A DNA stretch of 20,000 nt from an uncultured virus (IMG/VR IMGVR_UViG_3300003702_000449). Its lineage: Duplodnaviria; Heunggongvirae; Uroviricota; Caudoviricetes. Within the stretch, counting starts at the first letter, position 1; every line of letters starts with the position of its first letter. The position numbers and the translations under genes were made by a program. Location of the stretch: the IMG/VR virus record IMGVR_UViG_3300003702_000449; one strand, 5' to 3'. Positions 1-17,419 of this stretch are shown here, one piece after another. Below the pieces are notes generated by a model. That model saw only the letters and a list, made by a program, of their open reading frames with translations. It did not search any database and was not told the DNA's origin.

Positions 1-1
1 A

Positions 2-3000
2 GTCACTATCTGCATATAAGGCCGTAAAGGTTGTAGAAGTTGTGCAAGCCGTACCTGGGAATGTTATAGAATTCCCAACTTCAATATCCACAGTCTCAAT
101 AGCTGAAGGGGCACTGTTACCAATATCATCCTCATGTCTAAGCATAAACTGAGTTATACCTGCAGCATTAATAGAAGCTAATCCTGCAGCATTCAGAGGA
201 ATATCGTTATAGGCACCAACAACTAGAGTAGAAGCAGTTAATGCTGAAAGCTGTACTTGCACTGTATAATTTAAGTAATCATAGTCTCCAACAACTAAAG
301 GTTCAGATCCAGCTGCTCCAGCTTCCACTAGGAGTTGCCAGTCAGTACCCACATTTACACTGTCTATATAAATAGATAAGGTAGCAGCAGTAACAGTAGC
401 ATCACTAGGTAAATAACTAGTATCAAAGTTAGCCATATATCTATAGATACGATAGTCATTATCACTAGTCCCGGTAAAGTTATATGCAGCTATATAAGGA
501 CTAGCTGTCAGACCCACAAATAGAGTATCATCATTAGGATGGAACCCTATAGATGTGGTAGCTGAGCCTAATGCAGGACTAGGATCATCAAGTTTGGTAC
601 CAAAGACTCCAGTTAGTGTATTAAAGTTATAAACTGTCAAGTAAGGACCAACAGCATGGGATGCTGCTAAGTTAGTAGGACCAGAAGTATTTTCAGTTAG
701 CCAAGCTACTCCAGTACCAGCCCCAGGTAATGCAGTAGTAGAAATCTTTGTACCAATAGCCCCTGCACTAAAGGGATATACTTCTAAGTAAGGGCTAGTA
801 TCTGTTACTATAGCTATATGAGACCCATCTGGACTAAACTCAATGCCTGTAATTACTCCAGAAGGTATGTTACCTCCAGCAGGAGCTGAAGACTTAGAAC
901 TCCAAGAAGGGGTGCCTGCTCCTCCATTAGTTATAGCCCAGACATGCAAGTATGGACTAGTAGAACATCCAACTGCAACAAAAGTAGCATTAGTATTAAT
1001 ATCTACAGCATTACATTCAGCTCCTGGAGGACTCGTAGGTGCTGTTAAGGTACTAGTCCAGAAACCAGCTATAGCACCAGAGTTATCTATATCGTACATA
1101 TAGACACCAGCACTATCAGTAGTTGCTGCTACTACTATATTATCTCCAGTACCTATATCAAAGCCATTAACTCCTATTGATCCAACAGAGGTAGGATTGG
1201 GAGGAGTACCACTTATAACTCCTGTTGCGGGATCGAAGACATAAGCCCACAGATAATTAGCGTTAGCAGCAGTACCTACAACAAGCCTAGTTTTATCAGA
1301 TGTGAACATTGCATCTGTTCCAGCAGCAGCAGGAATAGTTGTAGGAGGATTAGAAGAAGAATCCCATTCTTTGTCTACTTCATCAAAAGCTTGAACTGTA
1401 AAGTAGGGTAGATCAGTATGTGCAAATACTGCATAGTCAGATCCTGACTGACTAAACGAACCTCCATTTACAGTACTAGACCAAGGTTCAAATATAATCA
1501 GTGCATCAGTTAAGGTTGCATTGAGTCCTCCAGCTTCGGTTGCCTTAACACTCCAATCTCCCGTCTGGATTCCATCGACAAGACAACTTACAACTACTGA
1601 AGTACCTCCTCCAGAAATAGGAGTACATGTTATAGGAGAAGTAGGAGCTCCTGATTTGAAGATTATTACATCCTCGGGAGGTGCAAACGTAGGACCAGGT
1701 AATCCAAGTCCAGTTAAGGTTAACTCTAAGCTACCAGAATTACCTGCCATTGTAGGAGATATACTAGTAAACCCAAAAGGTATCTGGTCAATGCTAAAAT
1801 TGTAATTCTCAGGAAGTACTATATCGTCTGGTACAATACCTGTTACAAAAGGTTTAATTGCACTACCAGGTATAGTTATACTAATGGTTTCTGTAGGTGT
1901 ACTAGGATTATACAGAACATGGGGAAGAAGTGTAATAGTAACTCTACTATCACTAGTCCTTACTACTTCGGAGACGTTCATATCATCTCTAACTGAGGTA
2001 TTCCAGTTAGTAGAACCAGCTCCTAAACTTCCTGTTAACCCATTAATTATATTCTGTCTCTGAGCATCAAAGGTTGCTCCTGCATCTACCCAATGAGTAC
2101 CCCAAAGGTCTAATACTATAGTTTCCCCACCAGATTGTATAATCTGAGCGTCTCCTATACTAGCACTATTGTCACCATGAATTACTATTAACTGAGGATC
2201 CCTGGTAGTTCCACCATACTCTGCCATATTAGCAGTCATATAGTCCGAACCACCTGTAGTATTATATTTAGTACCTAAATAATAAGAAGACTGTCTTATA
2301 GTTGGAGGGTCGTCTCCACCAATATAATCTAAATCGAAACTAGAACGTAGATTAAAGTAAGTTATACCCCCAGGATTAAAACTATGTAATCCTCTCTCAT
2401 TAAAGGCCATCATAGGAAAATGTTCGTTCCAAACATGTGGAGCACCTTGGTTATATATAGAAGGTTGCATTGAAATAGGAAATCTATTACCTAATTCCGT
2501 ATTGTACCATCTACCATCTTTAAAGTCTGATAGTGTTAGAATGTCTACATTACCTGAAAGGTCAGGTATGTTAGAATCAGTTAATACTACGGTACTTCCT
2601 AAACCAGATACGTTAGCAGAATCCGATGTGAATATTTTTAAGTAGGCTGAATGGTAACCTTTATTTGCACAGGGCTCACTATAATTTACTGTTAGTCTGG
2701 CACCTCTACCACCATCTTCGAAAGCCTGAATATCTACATAGGCATTTAACCCTGTTGCGCCTTGTCTCCACATAGGAGCACCATTACGAAAGTGGTCGAT
2801 AACTATCATAAAGCTAGAGGCACCAGTAGGGTCAATCGAATCTATGCCTCTATCATTTAATCTAAATTGATTTTCCTTTGGTCCAAATACCTGTGATGTT
2901 GATATATCGTTAATAATCAAATCATTAGCAAATGGAGGGTCTCCTGAGGGAGTAGCAGTTCTAAAGTTTGAAACTACACTATTATTTGCTACATCGCCAG

Positions 3001-6000
3001 GACTAAAGCCTATTAAGCTTATATGTATAGGAAAATCTGCAGTTCCCAAAGTATCATATTTAGCACTTGCCTTAAAGTCGATATAAGCTGAAGTAATAAT
3101 GGAATCGCTAGGTATACTAGATGTATCAAAGGACAGCGTAACGTCAGAACGGTCAGTATAGGCGTTGTTCTCAAAACCTAACTGAGACTTCACTCGGTTA
3201 GCACCTAAAGTCATACTAGTTTGAGCATCGTAAGGATGTCCAGGTGACTGGTTTGAAGGATCCCCTAGTATCTCTTTCCAACCTTGGTTCCATCCTCCAG
3301 ATGTATGGTTAGAGGTGCTAAAGTTTCCATCTTGATGCGTAGCAGACGTCTGTGTAACAAGAGTGCCTGTAGGACAAGAATAATCAGGTAGACTAGAAGT
3401 ATCGAATCCATAATACATCTTAGATAGATAGGACCAGGCACCTGGTGTATTATCTTTCTGACTTAATTGAATTGCTGAACCACCACTTTGAGTATAATGA
3501 ACTGTAGTTCCATTACCTCCGTACTGTAGGTATCTCCACATACCTGTATAGAAACCAGGTTGATAATTTACTATATCCCCATCCATACCTGTACCTGGGG
3601 CCCAGTTAACTCCTGTATAGAAGGTACTTACTGAGTTATTGTTCACAGTAGAGGTATTATCAACTTCAGCACAGGGAAGAACATAGCGTACTTCTAAGTA
3701 AGGATCTCTTTCGAGTCCAGTAGGACCCCAGTTATCTTCTGCATTATATGCAGAAATACCATTCATTCTATTAGCAGCCGTCCACCACGCAAAGTCATTA
3801 TCTATATCCATACCGAGGGCTAGTTGGAAACTAGTATTTTCAGTATCTTTCTTTATATAGTCTTTGCCTACATCAGTAAGGTCCCATACTTCATATCCGC
3901 CACCTCTATCCTTACCAAAAGACCCAACGTTAGGCGTCGCGTTCGCTACATGGAAAGGACCCATGTTCTCCATAAGCTTATCATTACTTAATCTCATGTA
4001 GGATGTACGATGCATATCCCCATTAGTGAAAGTAGTTTCTGATTGAGGATCAAAATCAATTAAAGCTAAGCCCTGTTTTCTCCAACGGTAATTTCCAAAA
4101 CCTCCATAATCTCTATCATTGTAGTGGTAAGCATAATTTATATAAAGTCCAACTCTACCTTCTATAATAAAAGCATCATCAGGTATCGCAGAAGTATCAA
4201 AACTAAACATCATCCTTTCGCCTACTTCATATAAATTATAAGAGGCGTCTGTTTGTATGATAGTTCTCATCGGAGACCAGCTATCACCTCCCCCATTTCC
4301 AAAGTTACTAACATTACTACGAGTTATTTGATCCCAAGTTAGACCAGGATATCCTGCATTTTGAGTTTGACCATATCCATCCCAACTATCTTGACCTGGT
4401 ACTCCATCTGCATCAGGATAGAATTTCATCTGAGTTGCTGGACACATCTTTAATGTATCAGTTGCATAGGTAATTACTAATTGAGGAGAAGGTTCTGATG
4501 ACTCTGAAGTATGGAACCTCATTTCAGTATCTGAAGTAGCGGCATGAGCGTGCATATCATCCATAAACATAAATAGTTCAGTCCAGCCTGTTCTATTTAC
4601 ATGGACATTTGTCATTCTAGGCCAAGAAGTATGACCCATGTTATTCATATTCATGGACCTAAGGGGAAAGGTCTCTAGAACGTTGTGACCTTGCTCACAT
4701 ATATCCGTTACAGCCCTTAATCTATGAGCATCATCTCCAGGAGAAGTTTTATACTGCTCAGCTGTCCATATATCTGTTGCATCTATAGGCCAATAACCTG
4801 TATAAGCTCCAGCAGTTTCACTTGACTGAGGATTAGCATAAGGTTGCTTTCCATGTGCCCAACCTATTCCAAATAATATGTGCTGGTCTCCAGTTGTTAA
4901 TTTAGAATGGCAAGCTAACTTTAAGTCTGCTTCTAAAATCAGAGCATCATCAGGTAAAGATGAAGTATCAAACCTTACATGGGAAAAGTTATACCTACCA
5001 ACACTATATTTAACTTCCATATCAGGCCAAGTTGTATTAGCGCTGCAACTACTTACAGTAGGAGCAGTAGCATAACAGTTTACCTCACCATCATCGGTAC
5101 CACTTGATACACTGAAAGTAACAGTGGGGTCAATAAGGTAAGGATAAGAAATTTCAGGAACTATAGAATCATCAAAATTCATTCTTATTCTATATTCATC
5201 CAATATCTCCCAAGAACCTGCATCAAACCTTTCTTGGTCTGAACCTATAAGTACAGGTCTAGGAACTACTAGTCTAGGTACCGAACCTCCAAATTCGCTT
5301 TCCTCTGTAAACCAATCTAAAGTTATAAAACCATCTATAGGCTCATAGAATAGGTCAGTATGTCCAGTTACAGCATTTCCCTGAAGATCAAGTCTTAAAG
5401 GTTGTACTCCAAATCCTAGAGGTTGGAATACGAAATCATATTCTTGTTGACCTAAAGGATTAGTAACTTCAGCAGTTAACTTAATGCCAGCATTGTTTAA
5501 TGTATAAATCCATTTAAGTCCTTCATATTCATACCAAGCAGTATTTCCTTCATAACTAAGAGGAGTAGGAGTATACCATCTACCTCCATATTCTCCATCA
5601 CTACTTAAGAAAGATATGGTACTCTGATTACCCTCAACCTTAAACCAGGGATGAGTAACCATAGACCAATTTTCTGGATTATCTGGATCTTGAATTAAGT
5701 TTAAACTAGTTTCTCTCCAGTCTCCTTCATCATCTTTATAATGTATATTAGGTTCATAAGTACTTCTTAAAGTACCAATTGCTATCTGGAAAGTCTTTGA
5801 ATCTCTAGTTCTTAAATCTATCCTTTCAGAGAAACTTTCTACTTCAGGTAACTCACCAAAATATTCTTCAATTAGGCCATCTTCATTTATCTTATAAGCC
5901 TTATTTATCAGATAAGAAAACTTGGACGCAAGACTATTAGCACCTGCAGCCTCATTCTCACTATAACTTCTAATTGGAAGTACTGACCTACCAATGTCCC

Positions 6001-6790
6001 TAGTCCATCCACTTACAATTCTAGTATAGTGCATACTTCCGACTACATTAAGTAGTGCCATTTCCTCTAACGAAGTCTCTGTCTTTAACTTCCAAAAAGC
6101 TCCCTTATCATAATGCCAACTAGTTCCCCCTGTACCTATATATCTAGGTTCGCCTAGAATAGCCTGAACTTCGTCTCCAGTCATTCCTTCAACTATACTA
6201 TCTGGAAAGACTCCATAATCATCTATTATTCCAGTTACAACCTGATGCTGTCCAGGAGTCTGTCCCTCTACCATTTGATCTATAGTAACAAACCCTGCAT
6301 TTTCAGGATCATCTGGATCTTCTAAAAATATATCTTCCCAAGTAGCCGCAGGCGTTACTAATTCTAAGGTAATATATCCAGTGGGTATATACTGCTCTAA
6401 TTCCTCTACGTCACTATTAGTCTCTTTATTAAATACAGGATAGGAACGATAAGGAGCTACAGTATTATCCTCCCTAAGAAATTCTCCTAATATATTAGTT
6501 TCTCTATCAACTCTTTCGTTTAGAAGTCCGTCCCAAGTGTATAGTTCATAAAACCATTCTTTACCATACTTATCTATATGTTGAACTTCTAATACTAGCT
6601 TTCCTTGAGCAGAACGGACATCTACTATTCTAAAGTCTGCACTATCATTATGGTTATGATTAGCTTGGTCGTGAGGCTCGCTTTCGCTATGAGCAAAAAG
6701 TTGATTAGGTACTACTATAATAGCTAAAGTAAATAGCACTATACTTAGCCAAGTAATTAACCAAGACTTATCTAATCTATGACGGATCAT
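2..6790 (-). CDS. Giant secreted multidomain adhesin/receptor-binding-like protein, partial (runs off left edge, at least 2263 aa)
   Basis: Not in the ORF track because it has no stop in the window. Manual translation from ATG 6790: MIRHRLDKSWLITWLSIVLFTLAIIVVPNQLFA (signal peptide); WapA/Rhs-N-terminal-like motifs (ERIDLRTRDSKTF...IHYKDEGDW, YPYLIDPT); five FDTSx(L/I)PxD-type DNRLRE-like motifs (about 4960, 4190, 3395, 3115, 415); IPT/TIG-like domain (about 1490-1780); 7-blade beta-propeller (about 480-1489). Frame is consistent at both ends. Confidence 0.9.
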   Translation of the reverse strand, partial: MIRHRLDKSWLITWLSIVLFTLAIIVVPNQLFAHSESEPHDQANHNHNDSADFRIVDVRSAQGKLVLEVQHIDKYGKEWFYELYTWDGLLNERVDRETNILGEFLREDNTVAPYRSYPVFNKETNSDVEELEQYIPTGYITLELVTPAATWEDIFLEDPDDPENAGFVTIDQMVEGQTPGQHQVVTGIIDDYGVFPDSIVEGMTGDEVQAILGEPRYIGTGGTSWHYDKGAFWKLKTETSLEEMALLNVVGSMHYTRIVSGWTRDIGRSVLPIRSYSENEAAGANSLASKFSYLINKAYKINEDGLIEEYFGELPEVESFSERIDLRTRDSKTFQIAIGTLRSTYEPNIHYKDDEGDWRETSLNLIQDPDNPENWSMVTHPWFKVEGNQSTISFLSSDGEYGGRWYTPTPLSYEGNTAWYEYEGLKWIYTLNNAGIKLTAEVTNPLGQQEYDFVFQPLGFGVQPLRLDLQGNAVTGHTDLFYEPIDGFITLDWFTEESEFGGSVPRLVVPRPVLIGSDQERFDAGSWEILDEYRIRMNFDDSIVPEISYPYLIDPTVTFSVSSGTDDGEVNCYATAPTVSSCSANTTWPDMEVKYSVGRYNFSHVRFDTSSLPDDALILEADLKLACHSKLTTGDQHILFGIGWAHGKQPYANPQSSETAGAYTGYWPIDATDIWTAEQYKTSPGDDAHRLRAVTDICEQGHNVLETFPLRSMNMNNMGHTSWPRMTNVHVNRTGWTELFMFMDDMHAHAATSDTEMRFHTSESSEPSPQLVITYATDTLKMCPATQMKFYPDADGVPGQDSWDGYGQTQNAGYPGLTWDQITRSNVSNFGNGGGDSWSPMRTIIQTDASYNLYEVGERMMFSFDTSAIPDDAFIIEGRVGLYINYAYHYNDRDYGGFGNYRWRKQGLALIDFDPQSETTFTNGDMHRTSYMRLSNDKLMENMGPFHVANATPNVGSFGKDRGGGYEVWDLTDVGKDYIKKDTENTSFQLALGMDIDNDFAWWTAANRMNGISAYNAEDNWGPTGLERDPYLEVRYVLPCAEVDNTSTVNNNSVSTFYTGVNWAPGTGMDGDIVNYQPGFYTGMWRYLQYGGNGTTVHYTQSGGSAIQLSQKDNTPGAWSYLSKMYYGFDTSSLPDYSCPTGTLVTQTSATHQDGNFSTSNHTSGGWNQGWKEILGDPSNQSPGHPYDAQTSMTLGANRVKSQLGFENNAYTDRSDVTLSFDTSSIPSDSIITSAYIDFKASAKYDTLGTADFPIHISLIGFSPGDVANNSVVSNFRTATPSGDPPFANDLIINDISTSQVFGPKENQFRLNDRGIDSIDPTGASSFMIVIDHFRNGAPMWRQGATGLNAYVDIQAFEDGGRGARLTVNYSEPCANKGYHSAYLKIFTSDSANVSGLGSTVVLTDSNIPDLSGNVDILTLSDFKDGRWYNTELGNRFPISMQPSIYNQGAPHVWNEHFPMMAFNERGLHSFNPGGITYFNLRSSFDLDYIGGDDPPTIRQSSYYLGTKYNTTGGSDYMTANMAEYGGTTRDPQLIVIHGDNSASIGDAQIIQSGGETIVLDLWGTHWVDAGATFDAQRQNIINGLTGSLGAGSTNWNTSVRDDMNVSEVVRTSDSRVTITLLPHVLYNPSTPTETISITIPGSAIKPFVTGIVPDDIVLPENYNFSIDQIPFGFTSISPTMAGNSGSLELTLTGLGLPGPTFAPPEDVIIFKSGAPTSPITCTPISGGGTSVVVSCLVDGIQTGDWSVKATEAGGLNATLTDALIIFEPWSSTVNGGSFSQSGSDYAVFAHTDLPYFTVQAFDEVDKEWDSSSNPPTTIPAAAGTDAMFTSDKTRLVVGTAANANYLWAYVFDPATGVISGTPPNPTSVGSIGVNGFDIGTGDNIVVAATTDSAGVYMYDIDNSGAIAGFWTSTLTAPTSPPGAECNAVDINTNATFVAVGCSTSPYLHVWAITNGGAGTPSWSSKSSAPAGGNIPSGVITGIEFSPDGSHIAIVTDTSPYLEVYPFSAGAIGTKISTTALPGAGTGVAWLTENTSGPTNLAASHAVGPYLTVYNFNTLTGVFGTKLDDPSPALGSATTSIGFHPNDDTLFVGLTASPYIAAYNFTGTSDNDYRIYRYMANFDTSYLPSDATVTAATLSIYIDSVNVGTDWQLLVEAGAAGSEPLVVGDYDYLNYTVQVQLSALTASTLVVGAYNDIPLNAAGLASINAAGITQFMLRHEDDIGNSAPSAIETVDIEVGNSITFPGTACTTSTTFTALYADSD
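476..1489 (-). repeat. Seven ~45-50 aa beta-propeller blade repeats within the giant ORF
   Basis: Repeating pattern (F/W/I)GxKxxxP...P...xxxxF(S/H)PDG..hhh....SPYhxhY, e.g. WSSKSSAP..PSGVITGIEFSPDGSHIAIVTDTSPYLEVYPF and FGTKLDDPSPALGSATTSIGFHPNDDTLFVGLTASPYIAAYNF; seven units counted. Confidence 0.85.
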
Positions 6791-8069
6791 TTAATTTCGC
6801 TCCAAAGGCTGCCGTAGTGTCTATAACCTTATCGTAAGCCTGCCCAATTTTATGGCTTGTTACTTCACTAGAAGTGTTTGAAAGGACATCTGCAGAATCT
6901 TCTTGTCTAACTGTTATATAGTTACTTGAGGCGTTATAGAAACTCTTTGAGTAAGATTCTTCAGCAGTAGCACTATAATAAACCCCTGCAGTTCCATCCT
7001 CCTCATTATGAGTCCAAGTTCCAATATAGTTACCACCTACTCCAGGGGCTGTAAGAGTTAAAGTATTATTGCCTCCAGCTACTAAAGCTGACTGGTAGCC
7101 TAAATCGAATGAGGCCCCTTTACCAAAGACTGTCCCTGTCTCATTAGTATCTACTTTAAAGTTCTGTTTAATCTCGAATCTCCAGCTACTACCAGGTTCT
7201 AATACAGCTGCATCTGCAGTTACAATCCCATCAAATCCAGGAAAATAGTTATGGAATGTATCAGTATCAGCCCCTCCAGTATATAGACTATAAGGTAGAG
7301 ATTCTCCTGCTGCAAGACTATCAGCATGGAACCACCACTGACCAGTTTCATACCAAGACTGTTCTCCTAAAGGTACTATAGTATTAGTACCAGCTGCAAC
7401 AGCTGTTACTTCTACCTTTAACCAATAAGCAGCAAAAGACTGGTGATTTTCCTTACCCCAGGCTCCACCTGTAGGCATAGTCCAACTAATACTATTATTC
7501 CCTACAGTCTTAAAACCATAATCATTACTGTCTAAAGTACTATCAAGTACTCCTGAAAATCCTACCCAACTAGTACAAGTAGTTGCATTAGACGTATCAC
7601 AGTATTTCCAGTTAGTAGTTAGATTATAATCAGTTGCTGTAGAAACAACTAAACGCATCATTCTTCCAGGATTATGTAAAGCAAATTCATACTCTTCATT
7701 TAATTGATAAGGGAATTCCATATCATTGGTAGTATTATTAGTAGCATCAGTAGTATCATCAGCAGCTAGTCTATTATAAGCTTTCTGCATATTTATCTTT
7801 AAAGAAGAGGGCATATTAGGTACATCAAAGGTACCTTGATGCAAGTGTGCATTTAAAGCATCTGGAGCTATATATCCAGTATCAATTAAGGTTTGAGCTG
7901 ATAAACCAAAATTCATAATAGCATCATTAACAGCAATACTCTGAGTATTCTGAGCTGTCATCTTCCACTGGACTAAACTACCAGTTATACTAGCTCCTAT
8001 CAAGAAAACAGAGAAAAAGGCAGTTAATAGAAGAAGGCCCCTCTTTTTATTTTTAGACTTACTAAACAA
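6777..8069 (-). CDS. Secreted/membrane-anchored beta-rich virion-like protein (430 aa); apparently the N-terminal half of a split adhesin gene
   Basis: TTG start 1 nt after upstream stop; basic N-terminus plus hydrophobic signal/anchor; Thr/Ser/Asn/Trp-rich beta-type sequence; ends abruptly in FGAKLNDPS, a propeller-blade start motif. Confidence 0.85.
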   Translation of the reverse strand: MFSKSKNKKRGLLLLTAFFSVFLIGASITGSLVQWKMTAQNTQSIAVNDAIMNFGLSAQTLIDTGYIAPDALNAHLHQGTFDVPNMPSSLKINMQKAYNRLAADDTTDATNNTTNDMEFPYQLNEEYEFALHNPGRMMRLVVSTATDYNLTTNWKYCDTSNATTCTSWVGFSGVLDSTLDSNDYGFKTVGNNSISWTMPTGGAWGKENHQSFAAYWLKVEVTAVAAGTNTIVPLGEQSWYETGQWWFHADSLAAGESLPYSLYTGGADTDTFHNYFPGFDGIVTADAAVLEPGSSWRFEIKQNFKVDTNETGTVFGKGASFDLGYQSALVAGGNNTLTLTAPGVGGNYIGTWTHNEEDGTAGVYYSATAEESYSKSFYNASSNYITVRQEDSADVLSNTSSEVTSHKIGQAYDKVIDTTAAFGAKLNDPS

Positions 8070-8070
8070 T

Positions 8071-9159
8071 TTAAGCCATCCTAGACATTATAAAGGTTAC
8101 CCCAAATAGAACCAAAATAAAGAAGAATACAGCAAAGACTAGTCCGATAGGAATAAGTCCTAACATACTTCCAGCTAAAATTAGAGGTATGCCAGTAACC
8201 ATAGCAGGAGTAACTGCCTGAGTTACATTAAAGATCATTCCAAGTATAGATATACCTATAAGAACGAAACCTATACCTCCAATAATCATACCTGTAGCCT
8301 TTGGATTTCCCTCTGAGTCCTCCTGTTCACCAAATAAAGCTAAGCCTAATGCATCTAAATTAGTAGACATACTCTCAGGTAAATTTCCCTCTAAGAAATC
8401 TTGTCCTTTAGGAGCTCCTGTATACGCTGTAGGTTCCTCAGCTATAGAAGCAGTAAATGCAAAAATATCTGGAACTAGAGTTCTAACCCCAGGAATAACC
8501 TTCATTGCAATAGTAGCACCAGCAACACTAAGTCTATCACCTAAGTTAGTTATTGTAGTATACTCCTGACCTGAAGCTATAGAAGCATTCTCAGTAATTT
8601 CAAGTATCTTACTCCCAAGAGAGTCTAGAGTAGTTCCTCCTAAAGTACCATCTATCCATATACTAGTATCATCTACTGATACTTTAGACTCATATGAGTT
8701 AGTAGAATCAACTGTAGAAAATAGAATAGGATTAGCACAGATACAAACCTTTAACTTATCCATATTCCAAGTTAAACCCTGATTTACCACACCCGCAGCA
8801 GTAAAGTACATAGCCTGATAAGCATGACCATAATAGAATATCTGTCTTATACCTCTAATAGTATCAGAAATTACAATTGGAGGTCCAGACTCAGTAACTT
8901 CTAGGATTAATTGTACTGCGAAGGCTCGCCTTGGATCTTCACTAGGAACCACAGCATAATTAACATTATATTCCACTAAGATAAGTAAATCATCAGCCTC
9001 TAAATAATTTCTAAAGACTGCAACCTGGTGTAACTTAATAGAATCAGGGTTAGTAATAGCAAAGACTGGATTAGCAGCAAAGCTAGCCAGAACTATTGCT
9101 ATAAGTATAAATATTAAGTGAAATCTACGTACTACCATACCTGAACCTAGTAAGTCCAT
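8071..9159 (-). CDS. Membrane protein with signal peptide and C-terminal transmembrane helices (putative virion envelope protein)
   Basis: Signal peptide (RRFHLIFILIAIVLASFAANPVFA), ~250-aa soluble region, 2-3 C-terminal hydrophobic segments. Alternative start ATG at 9138. Confidence 0.85.
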   Translation of the reverse strand: MDLLGSGMVVRRFHLIFILIAIVLASFAANPVFAITNPDSIKLHQVAVFRNYLEADDLLILVEYNVNYAVVPSEDPRRAFAVQLILEVTESGPPIVISDTIRGIRQIFYYGHAYQAMYFTAAGVVNQGLTWNMDKLKVCICANPILFSTVDSTNSYESKVSVDDTSIWIDGTLGGTTLDSLGSKILEITENASIASGQEYTTITNLGDRLSVAGATIAMKVIPGVRTLVPDIFAFTASIAEEPTAYTGAPKGQDFLEGNLPESMSTNLDALGLALFGEQEDSEGNPKATGMIIGGIGFVLIGISILGMIFNVTQAVTPAMVTGIPLILAGSMLGLIPIGLVFAVFFFILVLFGVTFIMSRMA

Positions 9160-9349
9160 CCTCCATTTGAGCCTTTACCATCCTAACTGCCCTAGCTCGA
9201 TTACTTGTAGGAAGATCAAACAACTCAGAATCCTTTATATTGCTCTGAGAAGAGATTTCTAATTTCTTCTGAGTTGCAAGATCTTCACTTTGATAAGGTC
9301 CATAAAATATAGGAGACCTTTCATCCATTGCCAGTATATACCAAGGCAT
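9125..9349 (-). CDS. Hypothetical protein (74 aa)
   Basis: Start abuts the stop of the upstream ORF (TAG ATG); natural composition; no recognised family. Confidence 0.75.
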   Translation of the reverse strand: MPWYILAMDERSPIFYGPYQSEDLATQKKLEISSQSNIKDSELFDLPTSNRARAVRMVKAQMEDGLTRFRYGST

Positions 9350-9592
9350 CTAAATACCCTTTATGCCTCTGAGTCCAGGACGCTTCCAGCCTTTCTTGGC
9401 TTTCTTTCCCATTACACCACTAGCTTGTTTCTTTACACCCTTAGCTACTTTAGTAGCTTCCTGGGCTAAACCAGATTTAATCTCACTGGCTTTAAATCCA
9501 CCATTAGTAACCTTAGCAGCTGCCTTAGCTTCATCTGCCATAGTTCTGGGTACTGCCTTAGTTTCCGGTAACGTGTATATTCTCTTAGCCAT
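9350..9592 (-). CDS. Small Lys/Ala-rich basic protein (80 aa), putative DNA-condensing protein
   Basis: AAGGAGG RBS upstream; highly basic (KKQASGVMGKKAKKGWKRPGLRGIKGI). Confidence 0.8.
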   Translation of the reverse strand: MAKRIYTLPETKAVPRTMADEAKAAAKVTNGGFKASEIKSGLAQEATKVAKGVKKQASGVMGKKAKKGWKRPGLRGIKGI

Positions 9593-9605
9593 TGTCTTAC
9601 CCTCC

Positions 9606-9746
9606 TTAAATCTTAAATCCAGACTTCTTTGAACCCTTTTTCCGCCCTTTACTTATACCCTTAGCAATCTTCGAACCCTTTACGTGACCCATTAGCTTCT
9701 TAATTTCACTTGCTATTTTAGTGCCACTAACTTGTCCCTTGTACAT
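9606..9746 (-). CDS. Small Lys-rich basic protein (46 aa)
   Basis: Manual translation MYKGQVSGTKIASEIKKLMGHVKGSKIAKGISKGRKKGSKKSGFKI; AGGAAGGA upstream; fills the gap; its stop overlaps the next RBS (TAAGGAGG). Confidence 0.75.
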   Translation of the reverse strand: MYKGQVSGTKIASEIKKLMGHVKGSKIAKGISKGRKKGSKKSGFKI

Positions 9747-9758
9747 CTATTATCCTTC

Positions 9759-12700
9759 CTAACTTATAGCTAATCTAGACATCTCAGTTTTACTTTTTCT
9801 ATCCAAAGCCGTAGGATACATCTTATGGTAATAAGTCTTTCCTGCAACTCCACTAGTAACAAACACTGCTGTTAATTCCTTATCATCGTCCATAAGAACC
9901 ATAAAAGATTTATTGGTTGTATCCTTACCTTCTACATCACCCTCCCAGTGATCAAACTTCCAGCCTTTATTTGCAACAGCATTAACCTTAATCATTTTAC
10001 CAGTTGCAATCCTTCTAGTTTTAGGAACTCCTCTGCCTGCCCCAGTAGGAGTAGACTTAATAAGTAAGTTAGATATACTTGGATCGTCTGTATCTTCTTC
10101 TTCCCTTTCAGGTGTCCACCAAGCGGGCCTACGCCTACGTATAATCCTTTTAGGCTTAGGTTTTTGAGGTCTGCCTACAGATGTATCAGTTTCAGTAGTA
10201 GTACTTGTAGTAACCTCGGGTTCAGTCATAGTACTAGTTGTTATTTCTGGGACCGTTTGAGTAGTAGTACTAGTTGTTAAACTAGGAGTAGTAGTAGTAA
10301 ACTGAGTAGGACCTACTATTGGAGCAGTAAACTGGCTAGGAGTTCCAATAGGTTGCATAGACGGAGAACCTGTTGTAGGAGCAATACCTGGACCAATACC
10401 TGGACTAATACTTGGACCTATGCCAGGACCTATCTTTGGACCTGTTCCTGGACCTGTTCCAGGGGTTGTAGTAGGACCTACACCAGGAGAGACTCCCGGA
10501 CTTACTCCAGGTGAAGGACCCACACCAGGAGATATATCAGGAGATATACCAGGACCCTGCCATTGACCTGGACCCCTTACCGGACCAATAATAGGAAGGC
10601 CACCAGGAGTCTTAAGAGGATCTCCAACTTGTCTTCTCCCAGGAGTAGTGGGACTTATAGGCTCTATAATAGGCGTACTAGGAGCTATCCCAGGACGTCT
10701 AACAGGAGTAGTGGGAGTTTCAGGAGGAAGTCTCTCAGGCTGGATTTCTGGAGTTACTTTAGGTTTCTTACTAGGAGCTGAAATTGTCTCAGGATCTGGA
10801 GGAAATAGACGAGTACCAGGAGAAACCGCATCTATTGCCTCAGCATCAGGATCTGGTTCCAGTACCCAACCTACCCCAGGTACAAACCTACTAGGAGCAT
10901 CACTAGAAGTTAACATTACAGGAGTACTTAGACCCAAACCAGCAGTTATACCTGAAAGAGGTCCCATTACACCTTGAAATCTACTTATTTCAGCGTCTGG
11001 TATTCCAGATACAGTACCACGTCTCTTTAAGATTTTAGACCATTCTGCATCAGATCTACCACTAGCTGTTAATCCAGGAATATTAGCTTTCTGTCTGAAT
11101 GTTACAGGAACTATAGTGCCTTCATAACCCCCAGCCCAATCTGTACCTGTTGGAGTTATTTTATAAGGTTCTCCTACCTGGGCATAATCTCCTGGAGCAC
11201 CTTTACCAGCTTGTAGTCTAGAGCCAAGTTCCATGACTGCATCATCTGGTATATCATCTGCTAGTATAGGAGCTGCTCTACCTTCAGCAATTTGTAACCT
11301 ATCAAGAACAGCCCTATCTGCTGCACTAAGACCAGAATAAGCATCATCTGCTACTAGATCTATTCTACCAACCTCAAGAGTATATGCGTCTGCAGCATCA
11401 TCACCCCGACTCATGCTAATTCTTGAAGCTTCCTCATACTGCTCTTTAGTAAGCTTAGGAGTTTGAGGTTCACTAGCACTTTTCCCTGTTGGCCTGACAC
11501 GAGTATCTGCTACCTTAGCTGACCCTCCAGGACCCTTCCAGCCTCCTCCTGTTGGAGTTAGACTTGGACTTGGACCTCCAGATATAGGAGGACCACCAGG
11601 CTCCAAACCTGGAATCTCCCAGTCATCCCCTTTAACTACCTTAAACTCTGTTACTAATTCCTCAGCTTCTCCCTTAGTAAGGGCTGGTAAGACATCTACA
11701 CCTTCAGTAACCTCTGGCTTGCCAAAGTAAGCCATAGTAGTTCTTAGTATACCTTCCTCGTCTTCTGGAGTAGCCTCTACGAATTCCCTCCTCCTACTTA
11801 CATAGACTGTAGTATGCATAGTATCAGCATCTACTTCTCTGACTACTCTAAGATAAGGCTCATCAACATCACCCGCTTCTCTAGGAACTTTGTATCCAAC
11901 TATTTTACCTTCACCTGGATCAACAGCAGTTAAGGACTTCTGCCTAATAGGGATCCAACCCTGATCTTCAATATACTTTGCAGAAGGAACGTAATTAGGA
12001 AGTACATCCACCCACTCGATCTCCCCTTTTACCCCTCTAAAACTATATGCTATATTTTCTATAGCATCTGCAAAATCTGCACCACCCTGTACAGCAGCTG
12101 CTTGTAACATCTTAGCATCATTAAGATGTAAGACTCTTTTACCAACTAGTACATCTCCAGTCTCTTTAATAGTCTGAAGAGGATGCCTAATAACTCTTGT
12201 AACATCCTTCACTCCCTGCTTAGCTAAGGTAGGTAAAGGAGTCTTCCAAGTCTCACTAGCTATTGCAACTGAGCCTTTTACTACAGATTTTCCAGCAGCT
12301 ACATATCCTGGAAGTACTGCAGCCCCTCCAGGTCCAACAGGAACTGCCTTCATGAGGGTCTTATCTACCATTCCCCCCAAAGTCCCAATAACAGTTCCAG
12401 TCTCCTCAGCTGTCTTTACAACCTGTCTTCCACCAGCAGCTGCTATATCACTTATAGGTTCAGTAGCTCCCTTATATAGAAGTCGTCCACCAGCAGTAAA
12501 AGGACTAAGGATTCTAGATACTTCAGGGGCTCTAGCAGCTACTTGGCCAGGATAGGCTAAAGGCTCTAAAACTGCAACAGCTTTACCAACTGTTTCTCCT
12601 ACTGATATTTTACTACTTAATTGCCCAGGATAGGCTAGAGGTTCTACTGCCTTAACTGCAGAAATAACTCTACTTGATACTGCGGACGAAAGCTGATAAT

Positions 12701-15700
12701 CCGCAGTTGCAAGGGCTCTAGGAGCAGCTTTAATAGCACTTATTATCCTAGGAGCCCCTAACATTATATCAACTGCGCCTGCTTCTGCGACTCCAACAGT
12801 TGCTTTAGTACCTGCAATAATAGGCTTAGCAGCCATTCTAACAGGAGCAGTAATCAACTTAAGACCTAAAGTCGGAGCAACTATTCCCATACTAGCAGTT
12901 AATTTTGCTAATTCTCCAGCATTATGTACTGCTATAACTACTCTTTCTTGTAATTCCTTCTTAGTTAAGTGGGAGGGAGCAGTTCTTAAAGCATTAGCAG
13001 CAGTTCTTACAAAACCTGCCTTTAAAGGAGCAGTTGCAACACTTCCAGCACCTAATGTTGCTATAGTAACTACATCTAAGACTCCTGAAACCCCTATCAT
13101 GGCTAACTCAGCCTTAGTAAAACCTCCAGGAGCAGACCTTATAATAATTCTTAGAGTACCAACTACAGGTATGGCATCCATACCCATAGACTTAGCATGG
13201 TCTAAAAAGGACTTAGTCTTAGTATAGTTAGGACTATCAACTATTTTTTGTATGTCTGTATCATCAAGACCAGCACGTCTTAACTGCTCTTCAGTAGCTT
13301 CAAGTTGTCCACCTGCCATTAAAGCTGTTAAAACATCAGAACTAAAGCTAATATCCTTATATTTGGGAAGCTGATCCTCTCCACTTATAACCTCTCCCTG
13401 TTCCTGCATTACTCTATATGCAAATGAACCTGGTTCAGGTTTCCATGCCTCTTCTAAAGGTCTATCAGCTGACTGCCCAGTACTTACCTTCTCAAAATAC
13501 TCTTTCCATTCTGGTGAGCGTATTTGCCCACCCTCTGCAACAGTATTACCCTCACTGTTTTTAACCCACCTAATAGGTGTCTTAGCCAGATTATTAAACA
13601 GAAATTGGTCAAAAGATATACCCTTATCAGGTAATCTAGCTGCCTCCTCTTCCGGAGTACCAGCCATATGCCAATCTGCCATAGGTCCAAGAATTGCACT
13701 TGACATACTTCCAGTGTCTATTTCAATATCTTGAACTATATTAACGCCTGCTGTAGGTACTCCACCAGCAGCATCTAAGCCATCAGACCCTTTAATAGGA
13801 GTTCCATCAGGACTAAGTCCAGCTAAACTAAGTAGGTAACCTTTCTTATCATCATAGTCTACAAAGGCCCTATCATACTCTTCTAGTTTCTCTGGAGTTA
13901 GATCAGTATACTTAAAGAGAATCCTATCAGAAACTCCAGCCTCTCTAGCCCCATCTATGTCTATACCACCTTCTTCAGTCATAAATGGAGTTAACTCATA
14001 TAGGTCATTTACCTCTTCAGCGTCAAATTCAGCAAGAACAGCAGTAGTTTTAGGTGAATCAAACTTTAACCCGGGAGTTACTCGGTCTAGAGAACTACTC
14101 TTTAAAAAGGGTATAATACCCCCAGCTTCCTCAATCTGTATCCTAGATTGTTCTGCAGTTACAACTTTATCCCCTAAATCTGTCCTTAATTCAGCATCAG
14201 TGAATTTTCCACTACGGATAATTGCTGAAGTATCTATACCTCCAGGAGTAATTTCTTCAAAACCGTCCCAGTCATATGCAGGTTGATTATAAAAATCCTT
14301 ATATTTATCTACCTCTCTAACATAATCTTCAGGAAAGCCTGCTTCTAGAAAAGTATCTACAGTAACTGAAGGATCTTCTAATGCAAGAGCAACTTGGAAT
14401 CCATTTAGTGACGTAACAGTTCCAACAACTGACTTTATCTGATCCTGGGCTGCTTCTCGTATAGCCTTTTGTTCTTCAAAAGCTGCTACCTCTCTTTCAT
14501 AGATTATGATGTTAGCACCATCAGAAGCAGCCTGATTTATAGTATCTTCATCTAATCCAAGTATCCTTAGATCTGCAATAAGTCTACCATGCTCTGCAAA
14601 ACTGATTTTCTGAGCATCAGCACTCATTGTAGCTATATCTAAAGTAGCAGTATCCCGCATGCCAGAACCATCCATACGGTGTATACCTTGATACTTTGTG
14701 TATTTAGCTAAAGTAGTATCATATTCTTCCTGTCGTCTTAGATTCTCTTCTAGTATTAACTTATTTTGGGCCTCTATTAATAAATTTGCTTCGTCTTGCC
14801 TAGCTTGTGCCTCCTCATCAATTATCTCTTGCTGTTTTACTGCTTCAAGTACTTTCCGGTCTCTCTCAGCTACAGCAGCAGCTGCACTCCTTCTAAAATC
14901 ATATACTGCTGTAACTCCTTTAGCTATATCTCGACTACTGAGTCCAGCCTTCCTTAAGTCTTCAGCTTTTCCACCTGCCTTTATAATAGCATCAATCTGG
15001 TACATCCCATCTTTAACAAGATCTGGGAACTCTTCCTGAAGTTTATCTCCATACTTTATATTCTGTCTAAGTCTACTTACTTCTGACCGTCTCATGCCTA
15101 GAGCAAGAAGATCTGAAGTAGTTGCCCCACTTCTGATTGCTTTACTTACATCTAGACCACCATCTGTCATCCAGCCTTGATTTCTAAACTTATTAGCTGC
15201 CTGCCAATATGCAGATAACTGGTCCTCAGTCGCTGTTAGTGGATCCAGAACTGGAAGCTCCTCTTCTTTAAGAGGTTGATTTACAATATATGAAATGTCA
15301 AAATCAAGAGAGGCTATCTGCTTCTCTAAATCTGGAAGTAACTCTGTTAAACCTTTCCCTTGAGCATCTCTAGCCTGAGCTAATACTCCTTCTTTCTTCT
15401 CTTGAAGAGCATCTATCTGAGTTTTCTTCTCTTCCTCAGTCATAGCAATAGGAACTACAACAAGTACAGGAGCATCTGTAGTTTCAGCTAATTGAGCAGC
15501 ATAAGCTTCAGACTGTTCTAGAGTACCTTCATAGAAACCCTGTTTGTCTTCATCCCAGTATATATTATCTTGAATATAAGTAGGAACTAATTTAGCTTTT
15601 TCAGCTTCTTCTTCTATAACCTGTATTCTAGCTACTTCTGCATCTGCAACTTCCTGGACCTTTCTAACTTCTATTGCACGGGCCTTCGATATTATATTCT

Positions 15701-16103
15701 GTCTGTCTTCTTCAGTATAGGCACCCTTTCTAACATCTGACTTAGTAGTTGCTATTATCTCTTCTATATAATCAGAGTCTGGTTCAGGGTCCTCCTCTTC
15801 AACTGAAGAATCCTCAACTTCTGTTGCTTCTGTAACTTCTGTAACTTCTATAGTACCTGAGGTCTCTGCAGGCTGGGAATCAGAAGTACCAACATCAGTA
15901 CCATCATCATCTACTGCAGGACTGTCAGCATAAATCTCAGGTGATCCTACATCAAGAGCTCCATCTGTATCAAAGTGCTCCTCAGATAAATTCCAATCCG
16001 CAGGACTATAGTCCACATCGGAAACTGCAGAGATAACCTGCTCATCTTCCTCAGTGGTCCAAGGATCAGATCCTGGTGTTGTGGACGGAGGCCTATTAGC
16101 CAT
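9759..16103 (-). CDS. Giant 2114-aa protein: acidic N-terminus, coiled coils, helical repeats, hydrophobic hairpin, Pro/Gly and Thr-rich tracts, C-terminal InlB B-repeat-like domain; putative virion internal/entry protein
   Basis: Long ORF without signal peptide; C-terminal IKVNAVANKGWKFDHWEGD...MDDDKELTAVF matches the divergent InlB B-repeat (Flg_new-type) pattern; function is inferred. Confidence 0.9.
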   Translation of the reverse strand: MANRPPSTTPGSDPWTTEEDEQVISAVSDVDYSPADWNLSEEHFDTDGALDVGSPEIYADSPAVDDDGTDVGTSDSQPAETSGTIEVTEVTEATEVEDSSVEEEDPEPDSDYIEEIIATTKSDVRKGAYTEEDRQNIISKARAIEVRKVQEVADAEVARIQVIEEEAEKAKLVPTYIQDNIYWDEDKQGFYEGTLEQSEAYAAQLAETTDAPVLVVVPIAMTEEEKKTQIDALQEKKEGVLAQARDAQGKGLTELLPDLEKQIASLDFDISYIVNQPLKEEELPVLDPLTATEDQLSAYWQAANKFRNQGWMTDGGLDVSKAIRSGATTSDLLALGMRRSEVSRLRQNIKYGDKLQEEFPDLVKDGMYQIDAIIKAGGKAEDLRKAGLSSRDIAKGVTAVYDFRRSAAAAVAERDRKVLEAVKQQEIIDEEAQARQDEANLLIEAQNKLILEENLRRQEEYDTTLAKYTKYQGIHRMDGSGMRDTATLDIATMSADAQKISFAEHGRLIADLRILGLDEDTINQAASDGANIIIYEREVAAFEEQKAIREAAQDQIKSVVGTVTSLNGFQVALALEDPSVTVDTFLEAGFPEDYVREVDKYKDFYNQPAYDWDGFEEITPGGIDTSAIIRSGKFTDAELRTDLGDKVVTAEQSRIQIEEAGGIIPFLKSSSLDRVTPGLKFDSPKTTAVLAEFDAEEVNDLYELTPFMTEEGGIDIDGAREAGVSDRILFKYTDLTPEKLEEYDRAFVDYDDKKGYLLSLAGLSPDGTPIKGSDGLDAAGGVPTAGVNIVQDIEIDTGSMSSAILGPMADWHMAGTPEEEAARLPDKGISFDQFLFNNLAKTPIRWVKNSEGNTVAEGGQIRSPEWKEYFEKVSTGQSADRPLEEAWKPEPGSFAYRVMQEQGEVISGEDQLPKYKDISFSSDVLTALMAGGQLEATEEQLRRAGLDDTDIQKIVDSPNYTKTKSFLDHAKSMGMDAIPVVGTLRIIIRSAPGGFTKAELAMIGVSGVLDVVTIATLGAGSVATAPLKAGFVRTAANALRTAPSHLTKKELQERVVIAVHNAGELAKLTASMGIVAPTLGLKLITAPVRMAAKPIIAGTKATVGVAEAGAVDIMLGAPRIISAIKAAPRALATADYQLSSAVSSRVISAVKAVEPLAYPGQLSSKISVGETVGKAVAVLEPLAYPGQVAARAPEVSRILSPFTAGGRLLYKGATEPISDIAAAGGRQVVKTAEETGTVIGTLGGMVDKTLMKAVPVGPGGAAVLPGYVAAGKSVVKGSVAIASETWKTPLPTLAKQGVKDVTRVIRHPLQTIKETGDVLVGKRVLHLNDAKMLQAAAVQGGADFADAIENIAYSFRGVKGEIEWVDVLPNYVPSAKYIEDQGWIPIRQKSLTAVDPGEGKIVGYKVPREAGDVDEPYLRVVREVDADTMHTTVYVSRRREFVEATPEDEEGILRTTMAYFGKPEVTEGVDVLPALTKGEAEELVTEFKVVKGDDWEIPGLEPGGPPISGGPSPSLTPTGGGWKGPGGSAKVADTRVRPTGKSASEPQTPKLTKEQYEEASRISMSRGDDAADAYTLEVGRIDLVADDAYSGLSAADRAVLDRLQIAEGRAAPILADDIPDDAVMELGSRLQAGKGAPGDYAQVGEPYKITPTGTDWAGGYEGTIVPVTFRQKANIPGLTASGRSDAEWSKILKRRGTVSGIPDAEISRFQGVMGPLSGITAGLGLSTPVMLTSSDAPSRFVPGVGWVLEPDPDAEAIDAVSPGTRLFPPDPETISAPSKKPKVTPEIQPERLPPETPTTPVRRPGIAPSTPIIEPISPTTPGRRQVGDPLKTPGGLPIIGPVRGPGQWQGPGISPDISPGVGPSPGVSPGVSPGVGPTTTPGTGPGTGPKIGPGIGPSISPGIGPGIAPTTGSPSMQPIGTPSQFTAPIVGPTQFTTTTPSLTTSTTTQTVPEITTSTMTEPEVTTSTTTETDTSVGRPQKPKPKRIIRRRRPAWWTPEREEEDTDDPSISNLLIKSTPTGAGRGVPKTRRIATGKMIKVNAVANKGWKFDHWEGDVEGKDTTNKSFMVLMDDDKELTAVFVTSGVAGKTYYHKMYPTALDRKSKTEMSRLAIS
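10380..10575 (-). repeat. Degenerate 12-nt tandem repeat encoding (G/S)PG(I/V/T) tetrapeptides
   Basis: GPGISPDISPGVGPSPGVSPGVSPGVGPTTTPGTGPGTGPKIGPGIGPSISPGIGPGIAP. Confidence 0.8.
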
Positions 16104-17221: not shown

Positions 17222-17419
17222 CTAGTCTGTAGAACCAGAAATCCACGCAACAGCACCCATCAAGATAACAGCGACGAAGACGTAAGGCAGGACAGAAATA
17301 AGCGCCTCAAGTCCGTCAGGAGCCGTGGTAGGTACTGCAGTAATAGTCTCCAAAATCGTAGGAATCAGGGTGACACCAACGACAATGGAAATCATGATAC
17401 CAATCAGAATTGCAACCAT
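17222..17419 (-). CDS. Putative major capsid protein, spindle-shaped virus (SSV1 VP1-like) two-helix hydrophobic fold
   Basis: 65 aa; helix 1 ILIGIMISIVVGVTLIPTI, short polar loop, helix 2 ALISVLPYVFVAVILMGAV; the GhxLhPxI and LhxhhPhhh motifs match my recollection of fusellovirus VP1/VP3; own promoter, RBS and terminator; distinct codon usage. Confidence 0.7.
   Translation of the reverse strand: MVAILIGIMISIVVGVTLIPTILETITAVPTTAPDGLEALISVLPYVFVAVILMGAVAWISGSTD

Follow-up and report, generated by a model that had tools for sequence, protein, structure and literature searches.

The window, by which we mean the whole 20,000-nt stretch of DNA analysed here, forms the right-hand end of a virus record of 71,461 nt (IMGVR_UViG_3300003702_000449) whose completeness the record gives as 95%. 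The public runs that contain the stretch are hydrothermal-vent, marine and seawater metagenomes. No RNA dataset is listed among them, which is uninformative on expression. The window carries the following genes and features.

1–457, minus strand: C-terminal part of a DNRLRE-like domain (from DYRIYRY); the gene continues through the C-core and a hydrophobic hairpin.
470–1489, minus strand: seven-bladed β-propeller, residues 1768–2107 of the giant protein, with only three strands in blade 7 (AlphaFold2 model).
578–604, minus strand: FGTKLDDPS, the motif's internal copy, which forms blade 6's outer strand in the model (E295–299; VFGTK).
1000–6800, no strand assigned: block recently exchanged with the relative L005, from mosaic DNA identity.
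1478–1500, minus strand: junction B, the end of a TIG-like domain followed by [EQST]xWSSx[VI]NGGxF; boundary accurate to a few codons.
1490–6779, minus strand: the insert (5,290 nt), with a signal-peptide-like start, an N-terminal module, DNRLRE-like repeats and an Ig/TIG-like end.
6777–6803, minus strand: junction A, comprising GGAG (6803–6800), the ATG of the giant gene (6790) and the stop TAG (6779–6777); overlap 14 nt.
6777–8069, minus strand: the 430-aa N-protein, a signal-peptide-like N-terminus plus the N-core common to fused family members.
6780–6806, minus strand: FGAKLNDPS, predicted outer strand closing blade 7 and start of the linker; the most conserved part of the N-protein.
6837–6983, minus strand: tail of the N-protein, predicted N-terminal part of the DNRLRE-like domain (about residues 363–411, ending KIGQAY), assigned via intermediate homologs.
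8071–9159, minus strand: 362-aa protein, signal-peptide-like at its start and with hydrophobic segments towards the C-terminus.
17222–17419, minus strand: 65-aa two-helix protein resembling the major capsid proteins of spindle-shaped viruses (weak profile matches).

The N-protein frame (8069–6777, minus strand) terminates ...FGAKLNDPS-TAG, and its product has no hydrophobic segment besides the signal-peptide-like N-terminus and no C-terminal anchor. The giant frame encodes 2,541 residues and ends 835 nt past the left edge of the window, at C1 50626, in a hydrophobic hairpin. Its GGAG comes from Gly-Ala codons of the N-protein gene. The first-pass annotation of this DNA had reported both frames with their coordinates and had noted that the upstream codons supply the ATG, 14 nt inside the N-protein frame, and the GGAG; we confirm all of this. 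Residue E1768 of the giant protein (EPWSSTVNGGSF) starts at position 1489, and deletion of 1490–6779 (5,290 nt, 3n+1) would indeed put both frames together, as had been pointed out. By itself this join is no evidence, because any codon boundary would give the same. Just inside the giant gene, at the start of its signal-peptide-like segment (6761–6772), 11 of 12 sequences keep a D[K/R]SW motif that varies synonymously; L003 has GKSW.

What does the insert encode? The arm specified by it comprises 1,767 residues. Its N-terminal module is homologous to the N-arm of the fused relative P0091 (E 6e-22). As the module extends the P0091 chain in line, the insert resembles the 5′ portion of a related spike gene and not a mobile element. 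A DNRLRE domain (NF033679) is found in the giant protein at 51.8 bits against a curated cut-off of 34, the best stretch being residues 857–1004. The insert had been described as having its own signal peptide and as ending cleanly at a TIG-like domain. A signal-peptide-like start is present; the TIG-like end is seen by eye, has no match in Pfam, and can be placed to within a few codons. The labels TIG and LamG-like are presumptive. In L008 the giant itself is present as two overlapping frames (1143–3380 and 3364–8841; 745 and 1,825 residues), the second with an ATG, either a second split or an assembly error. L010 and L011 have an additional DNRLRE-like domain nested in the Ig-like domain of the giant protein; nested insertion is a recurring habit of this spike family.

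How complete is the propeller? An AlphaFold2 model of giant residues 1768–2405, computed from an alignment of 11 sequences, is confident over its residues 1–340 (pLDDT about 65–92 per 10-residue block). Modelled blades 1–6 have four strands each (the outer one of blade 5 is short) and blade 7 has three, so that the giant protein would supply 27 of 28 strands. The fission reading had been staked on the propeller being incomplete without the N-protein peptide, and modelled blade 7 is in keeping with this. The best match in a fold search is to seven-bladed WD40 propellers (Z 34.7, rmsd 2.0, 280 residues aligned). The giant has the seven WD40-like blades and lacks the N-terminal strand that closes such a propeller within a single chain. 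Residue 1 of the model aligns with residues 10–13 of several of the WD40 targets, whose preceding residues we take to be the closing strand. A propeller with a strand missing can still be stable.

The candidate for the missing strand lies on the N-protein. A nine-column motif profile, built from 25 repeats of three unrelated propeller proteins, was run over 21,917 nine-residue windows. It ranked the internal copy FGTKLDDPS first (21.1 bits) and FGAKLNDPS, at the exact C-terminus of the N-protein, second (15.1 bits); the third scored 7.6. An HMM of unrelated repeats puts giant residue 1771 at position 14, the blade-1 match being weak alone; DPS then falls at positions 8–10 and E1768 at position 11. 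Unrelated blades are matched at E 0.0019 by the family's 22 C-terminal residues, where the best among 35 control windows reaches 0.054. The intact protein P0177 has seven repeats, the first of which opens GLKLADPS. The propeller register across the split, which the first-pass annotation had proposed, thus exceeds chance. Its further claim that the peptide is the missing start of blade 1 holds for the sequence of repeat 1; in the model the peptide would be, structurally, the outer strand that closes blade 7.

The DNRLRE-like domain that follows the propeller also appears to be divided. The copy in the giant protein matches positions 50–176 of a custom HMM (E 1e-28). In the model this part has middling confidence, and the final 120 residues lie below 40, which fits missing halves and also fits a shallow alignment. 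The tail of the N-protein had been proposed to supply the absent half. Direct profile comparison of the window tail with the start of intact DNRLRE-like domains gave no significant match (E 0.13, equal to the best control window). In distant split proteins the domain start is plain ahead of the terminal motif; the tail in the window has drifted. The proposal therefore stands through the intermediate homolog P0024, not through a direct match.

Is the split peculiar to this virus? A search for homologs of similar length returned 22 matches: the window's own protein, one 244-aa fragment and 20 others. Twenty of the 21 non-self homologs (33–83% identity) terminate at G[AD]K[LI]xDP[ST], and seven more distant representatives (P0023, P0024, P0028, P0030, P0034, P0035 and P0100) have the same end. 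In all of 11 distinct related contigs (L002 and L012 being one) a signal-peptide-like frame opens 14 nt short of the stop codon's end, the start codon being ATG in eight, TTG in one, and CTG with TTG one codon upstream in two. This frame runs into a long open reading frame in nine; two contigs end within 150 nt. Every one of the six relatives that reach junction B keeps its motif, WSSx[VI]NGGxF, 5,179–5,650 nt downstream, which is the range of insert lengths among them.

Fused relatives exist as well. A profile search found 1,463 proteins at E ≤0.001, and the best 150 of these were examined. Among 106 N-core rows, 67 end in a hydrophobic segment, 25 are of the split type and 14 are other or fragmentary. 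The fused protein P0075 aligns with the split protein P0024 up to ‘IGQ’, residue 801 (E 6e-58), and from residue 806 to its end with the C-part of the giant (E 3e-23). Because the two halves tile P0075 with a gap of four residues, the propeller sits in a four-residue loop of the DNRLRE-like domain. The family profile matches the two window genes at positions 11–440 and 474–692. These fused homologs support the earlier proposal of gene fission by insertion. That proposal had called for an uninterrupted homolog: fused relatives answer the call in part, since none of 190 proteins is a fused form that keeps both this propeller and the N-core. For that reason we infer the immediate ancestor. One candidate for a fused propeller form, P0072, was rejected, having no similarity to the C-part of the giant protein.

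Other searches added little. One for longer homologs found none among 7,996 candidates; we judge it insensitive because the profile search found many longer relatives. Single-protein scans of viral contigs returned nothing. Of seven loci from the A4 scan, L016 is a partial locus of the split family, L022 is the L002 contig once more, and the other five are contigs that share only part of the N-core and whose gene sets look unrelated. A search for the junction-B DNA pattern returned the L002 contig only. The N-protein has no match in PDB sequences, PHROGs or phage records. In the ESM Atlas there are propeller-type viral clusters (0.93–0.94), and a lead at 0.78 to DNRLRE/Laminin_G_3 proteins. 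We found no account of this family or of its split in the published literature, as covered by the main texts of papers mostly outside subscription.

The first-pass annotation had reckoned fission doubtful if homologs routinely ended at this point with no fused version. They do routinely end here (20/21), yet fused versions exist, and we therefore regard the split as old and maintained. On the sequence evidence it is fixed across the whole lineage, not a one-off. Did it arise once? A quick tree of the 106 rows forces at least three changes, and a careful tree of a 31-row subset (13 split, 18 fused) has one change forced by starred branches. An AU test on the 31-row tree rejects a single clade of split N-cores (p 0.0015), which suggests either lateral spread of the split or reversions.

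How strongly is the tail of the N-protein conserved? The mean pairwise identity among 22 rows is 0.82 over the last nine residues, 0.68 over the tail and 0.38–0.50 over the body. Part of the tail is constrained at the level of DNA by the ribosome-binding site, since its Gly codon is GGA, followed by G, in 12 of 12 sequences and belongs to the GGAG. Crossovers also fall in the tail, and its conservation can be inflated by them. Against the relative L005 the window is mostly 97–100% identical in DNA from about 6700 to 1000 and about 40–70% identical outside, and the X4 contig diverges near 6893, in the tail. Among 10 genomes, arms 93–94% alike occur behind N-proteins 36–43% alike, and N-proteins 85% alike occur with arms 39% alike. 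The identity of the N-protein does not track that of the arm (Spearman −0.12 over 45 non-independent pairs). In the six genomes that had sufficient sequence, the divergence of the N-body tracks that of the C-core in the giant, at a distance of 7 kb (Mantel rho 0.93, p 0.006, one of 12 tests), and the N-body compared with the arm gives rho 0.07; co-inheritance would explain the correlation with the C-core equally well. We conclude that the arm has been swapped between viruses by recombination in the conserved tail and propeller, as is seen in the mosaicism. The insert had earlier been suggested to be an exchangeable cassette, and both the mosaic with L005 and the independence of arm and N-protein agree with this.

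If the split is maintained, what maintains it? We think it probable that the two proteins are both exported and come together again through strand complementation, so that a branched spike with an exchangeable arm results. Such complementation fits the three-stranded blade 7 of the model and the conservation of the tail. The alternative that fares best is that fission is a matter of history only. The two proteins would now work apart or touch loosely, and the tail would be kept as the ribosome-binding site and start of the next gene and as a block of homology for recombination. The invariant GGA, the crossovers that map into the tail and the presence of split-type tails on several N-core lineages, as expected of a laterally spread block, would all follow. 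Against it stands the protein-level pattern. The terminal Ser codon is TCN in six and AGT in six of 12 DNA sequences, the D and P codons vary synonymously too, and residues 2–4 of the giant protein, encoded in the overlap, vary freely. The end point is constant to within one residue in proteins some 30–35% alike, the N-protein has no anchor of its own, and among the relatives the giant protein has never been seen to regain the strand. We consider a purely historical fission unlikely.

Could the 5.3 kb instead be removed, as DNA or as RNA, to give a fused spike and a switch between two spike forms? In favour of this, the join would keep both reading frame and blade register, and all relatives have conserved junction sequences. 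Against this, the longest direct repeat common to the junctions is 6–7 nt, with no fixed place, in seven genomes; the junction pairing energies are ordinary, 22–81% of control windows being as good or better; and Rfam has no match within 1–10000. No tyrosine or serine recombinase was found in the 95%-complete genome by searches whose controls were positive in 14 and 12 of 14. Nor does any of the 15 joints listed, of 20, link 1489 to 6780, in contigs, from which rare forms are dropped. Finally, the insert has its own signal-peptide-like start and reads in frame into the downstream part. Excision or splicing is thus very improbable. Misassembly or chance resemblance we set aside as scarcely credible: no single listed contig piece covers the whole stretch, but of four runs compared, three (X1, X2 and X4) have contigs that bridge junction A and two (X1 and X4) have contigs that bridge junction B, X1 being possibly the source sample. 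Support of this kind had been asked for both present junctions, and it is the reason we hold the stretch to be correctly assembled. The same layout recurs in 11 other contigs, and the motif ranks second of 21,917.

Other routes across the junctions were also considered and rejected. A crossover at a shared TAAATG would remove 11 residues, and junction A has no TAAATG in four of 12 sequences. A +1 frameshift into the giant gene was rejected by inspection, the codons before the stop being TCA, AGT, TCC or TCT with no common slip site. As for a split intein, the N-protein ends in DPS, the sequence ahead of junction B is TIG-like and lacks a terminal His-Asn, and no Hint domain is found by Pfam.

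To what kind of virus do these genes belong? The genome encodes ribonucleotide reductase, QueC- and QueF-like proteins and DNA polymerases of families A and B, the viral-type family B enzyme and the UDG-fused family A enzyme lying at G000:C1:4621–6369 and 7092–9500. It has a Zot-family ATPase (E 2e-7), as spindle-shaped viruses have for morphogenesis, and, in the hairpin-ended giant protein, a large membrane-anchored spike, another of their features. The 65-aa protein matches His1_capsid weakly (E 0.014, under the cut-off), and its single match in the PDB, also weak (E 0.11), is VP1 of SSV19. These two matches suggest, from the genes alone, a spindle-shaped-like virus, possibly of an undescribed group of large (70–80 kb) marine spindle-like viruses. 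In a scan of genome_contigs for the host, the sole match was partial and lay on a 3.6-kb contig. N-glycosylation sequons give no clue to the host, as they show no clear enrichment (p 0.11, 0.056 and 0.74).

Relatives with enough DNA have a gene for about 340–370 residues upstream of the N-protein gene, as the 362-aa gene is here. The gap upstream of the latter contains a 20-nt inverted repeat, 85% complementary, with 36 nt between its arms (9211–9286); promoter and terminator scans gave chance level only. Farther upstream lies a 2,114-aa protein (9759–16103, minus strand) whose N-terminus is acidic and which has Pro/Gly/Thr repeats and, at its C-terminus, a Flg_new_2 domain; genes of some 2,000 residues are likewise upstream in L002, L009 and L010. 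Elsewhere in the genome a TMEM260-like O-mannosyltransferase (G000:C1:38250–39827; L026:7251–8828; E 9e-13) adjoins a GT2/methyltransferase gene; genes for SIS, GHMP-kinase, transaldolase and nucleotidyl-transferase proteins are close by. TMEM260 acts on IPT/TIG domains. Gene content of this kind suggests that the virus may glycosylate its own spike.

Are there precedents for such a spike? In chaperone-usher pili, by donor-strand complementation, a β-strand of one exported chain completes the fold of another, and the halves of cleaved adhesins and spikes stay bound. Those cases depend on the design of pilins or on proteolysis of one precursor; here there are two genes with two signal-peptide-like starts and a product that would be branched. 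In another precedent, Sec13 and Seh1 are incomplete WD40 propellers completed in trans by the domain invasion motif that Sec31, Sec16, Nup145C or Nup85 carries, in the part of the source consulted (PMC8907234). The element missing from the giant's propeller likewise occurs on another protein. That case, as described there, involves a whole blade, the eukaryotic cytosol and unrelated partners, whereas the spike of the window would receive a single strand, outside the cell, from its own former N-terminal half, together with parts of other nested domains.

Among viruses the nearest likeness is to fusellovirus VP4 (SSV1, SSV19), a large spindle-virus spike with inserts. The available excerpts describe that of SSV19 as a large tailspike whose core has long inserted segments (PMC9351363) and report VP4 as separate N- and C-terminal parts in three SSV genomes (PMC9608457). 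The likeness is one of plan: the A1 profile of our family finds 0 PDB chains, so no sequence relation is shown, and the modelled VP4 core, in the excerpt, is a helical barrel. The SSV split concerns three genomes, and the excerpted account describes no inserted gene start, propeller strand or swapped arm. Also close are the fused relatives P0025, P0075 and P0091 of this uncharacterised family, which have the same N-core, DNRLRE-like insert, C-core and hydrophobic end. They differ in being single chains without this type of propeller, in which an arm, if present, lies in line and is not a branch.

How might a branched spike have come about? The family norm is one membrane-anchored protein: signal peptide, N-core, inserted DNRLRE-like domain, C-core and hydrophobic hairpin. 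In this lineage, to judge from the tiling of P0075, a WD40-like propeller came to occupy a loop within the DNRLRE-like domain. A 5′ stretch of a related spike gene, encoding a signal peptide and about 1,750 residues, would then have been inserted just past the closing strand of the propeller, whereupon the upstream codons could provide the giant gene with its ribosome-binding site and start. Because they do so, the two genes are probably coupled in translation. With their signal-peptide-like starts both chains would be exported. The anchorless N-protein would dock on the anchored giant and return three elements to it, namely the strand that closes blade 7, the beginning of the DNRLRE-like domain and one half of the core. 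The outcome would be a branched spike with an extra free arm, and swapping of the arm would probably vary host binding.

Whether the fuller scheme is right seems to us an even question. In it, a maintained fission yields a branched virion spike, the tail of the N-protein acts as a universal plug for the nested domains (propeller strand, DNRLRE start and core half), arms and N-proteins mix freely across viruses 30–40% alike, and several N-core lineages have acquired the tail-plus-giant module. The usual view of gene fission is of decay, or of a neat separation of one domain from the next. In the present case nested domains are themselves cut through, and the cut is kept across proteins some 30% alike and comes with a swappable 5-kb arm. 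If the scheme is true, these viruses would possess a natural plug-and-socket system for changing host range, and a way for a linear protein to acquire a branch. It would offer a testable mechanism for variation of the attachment protein in marine viruses that have no known tails, as well as a split-propeller tag of natural origin.
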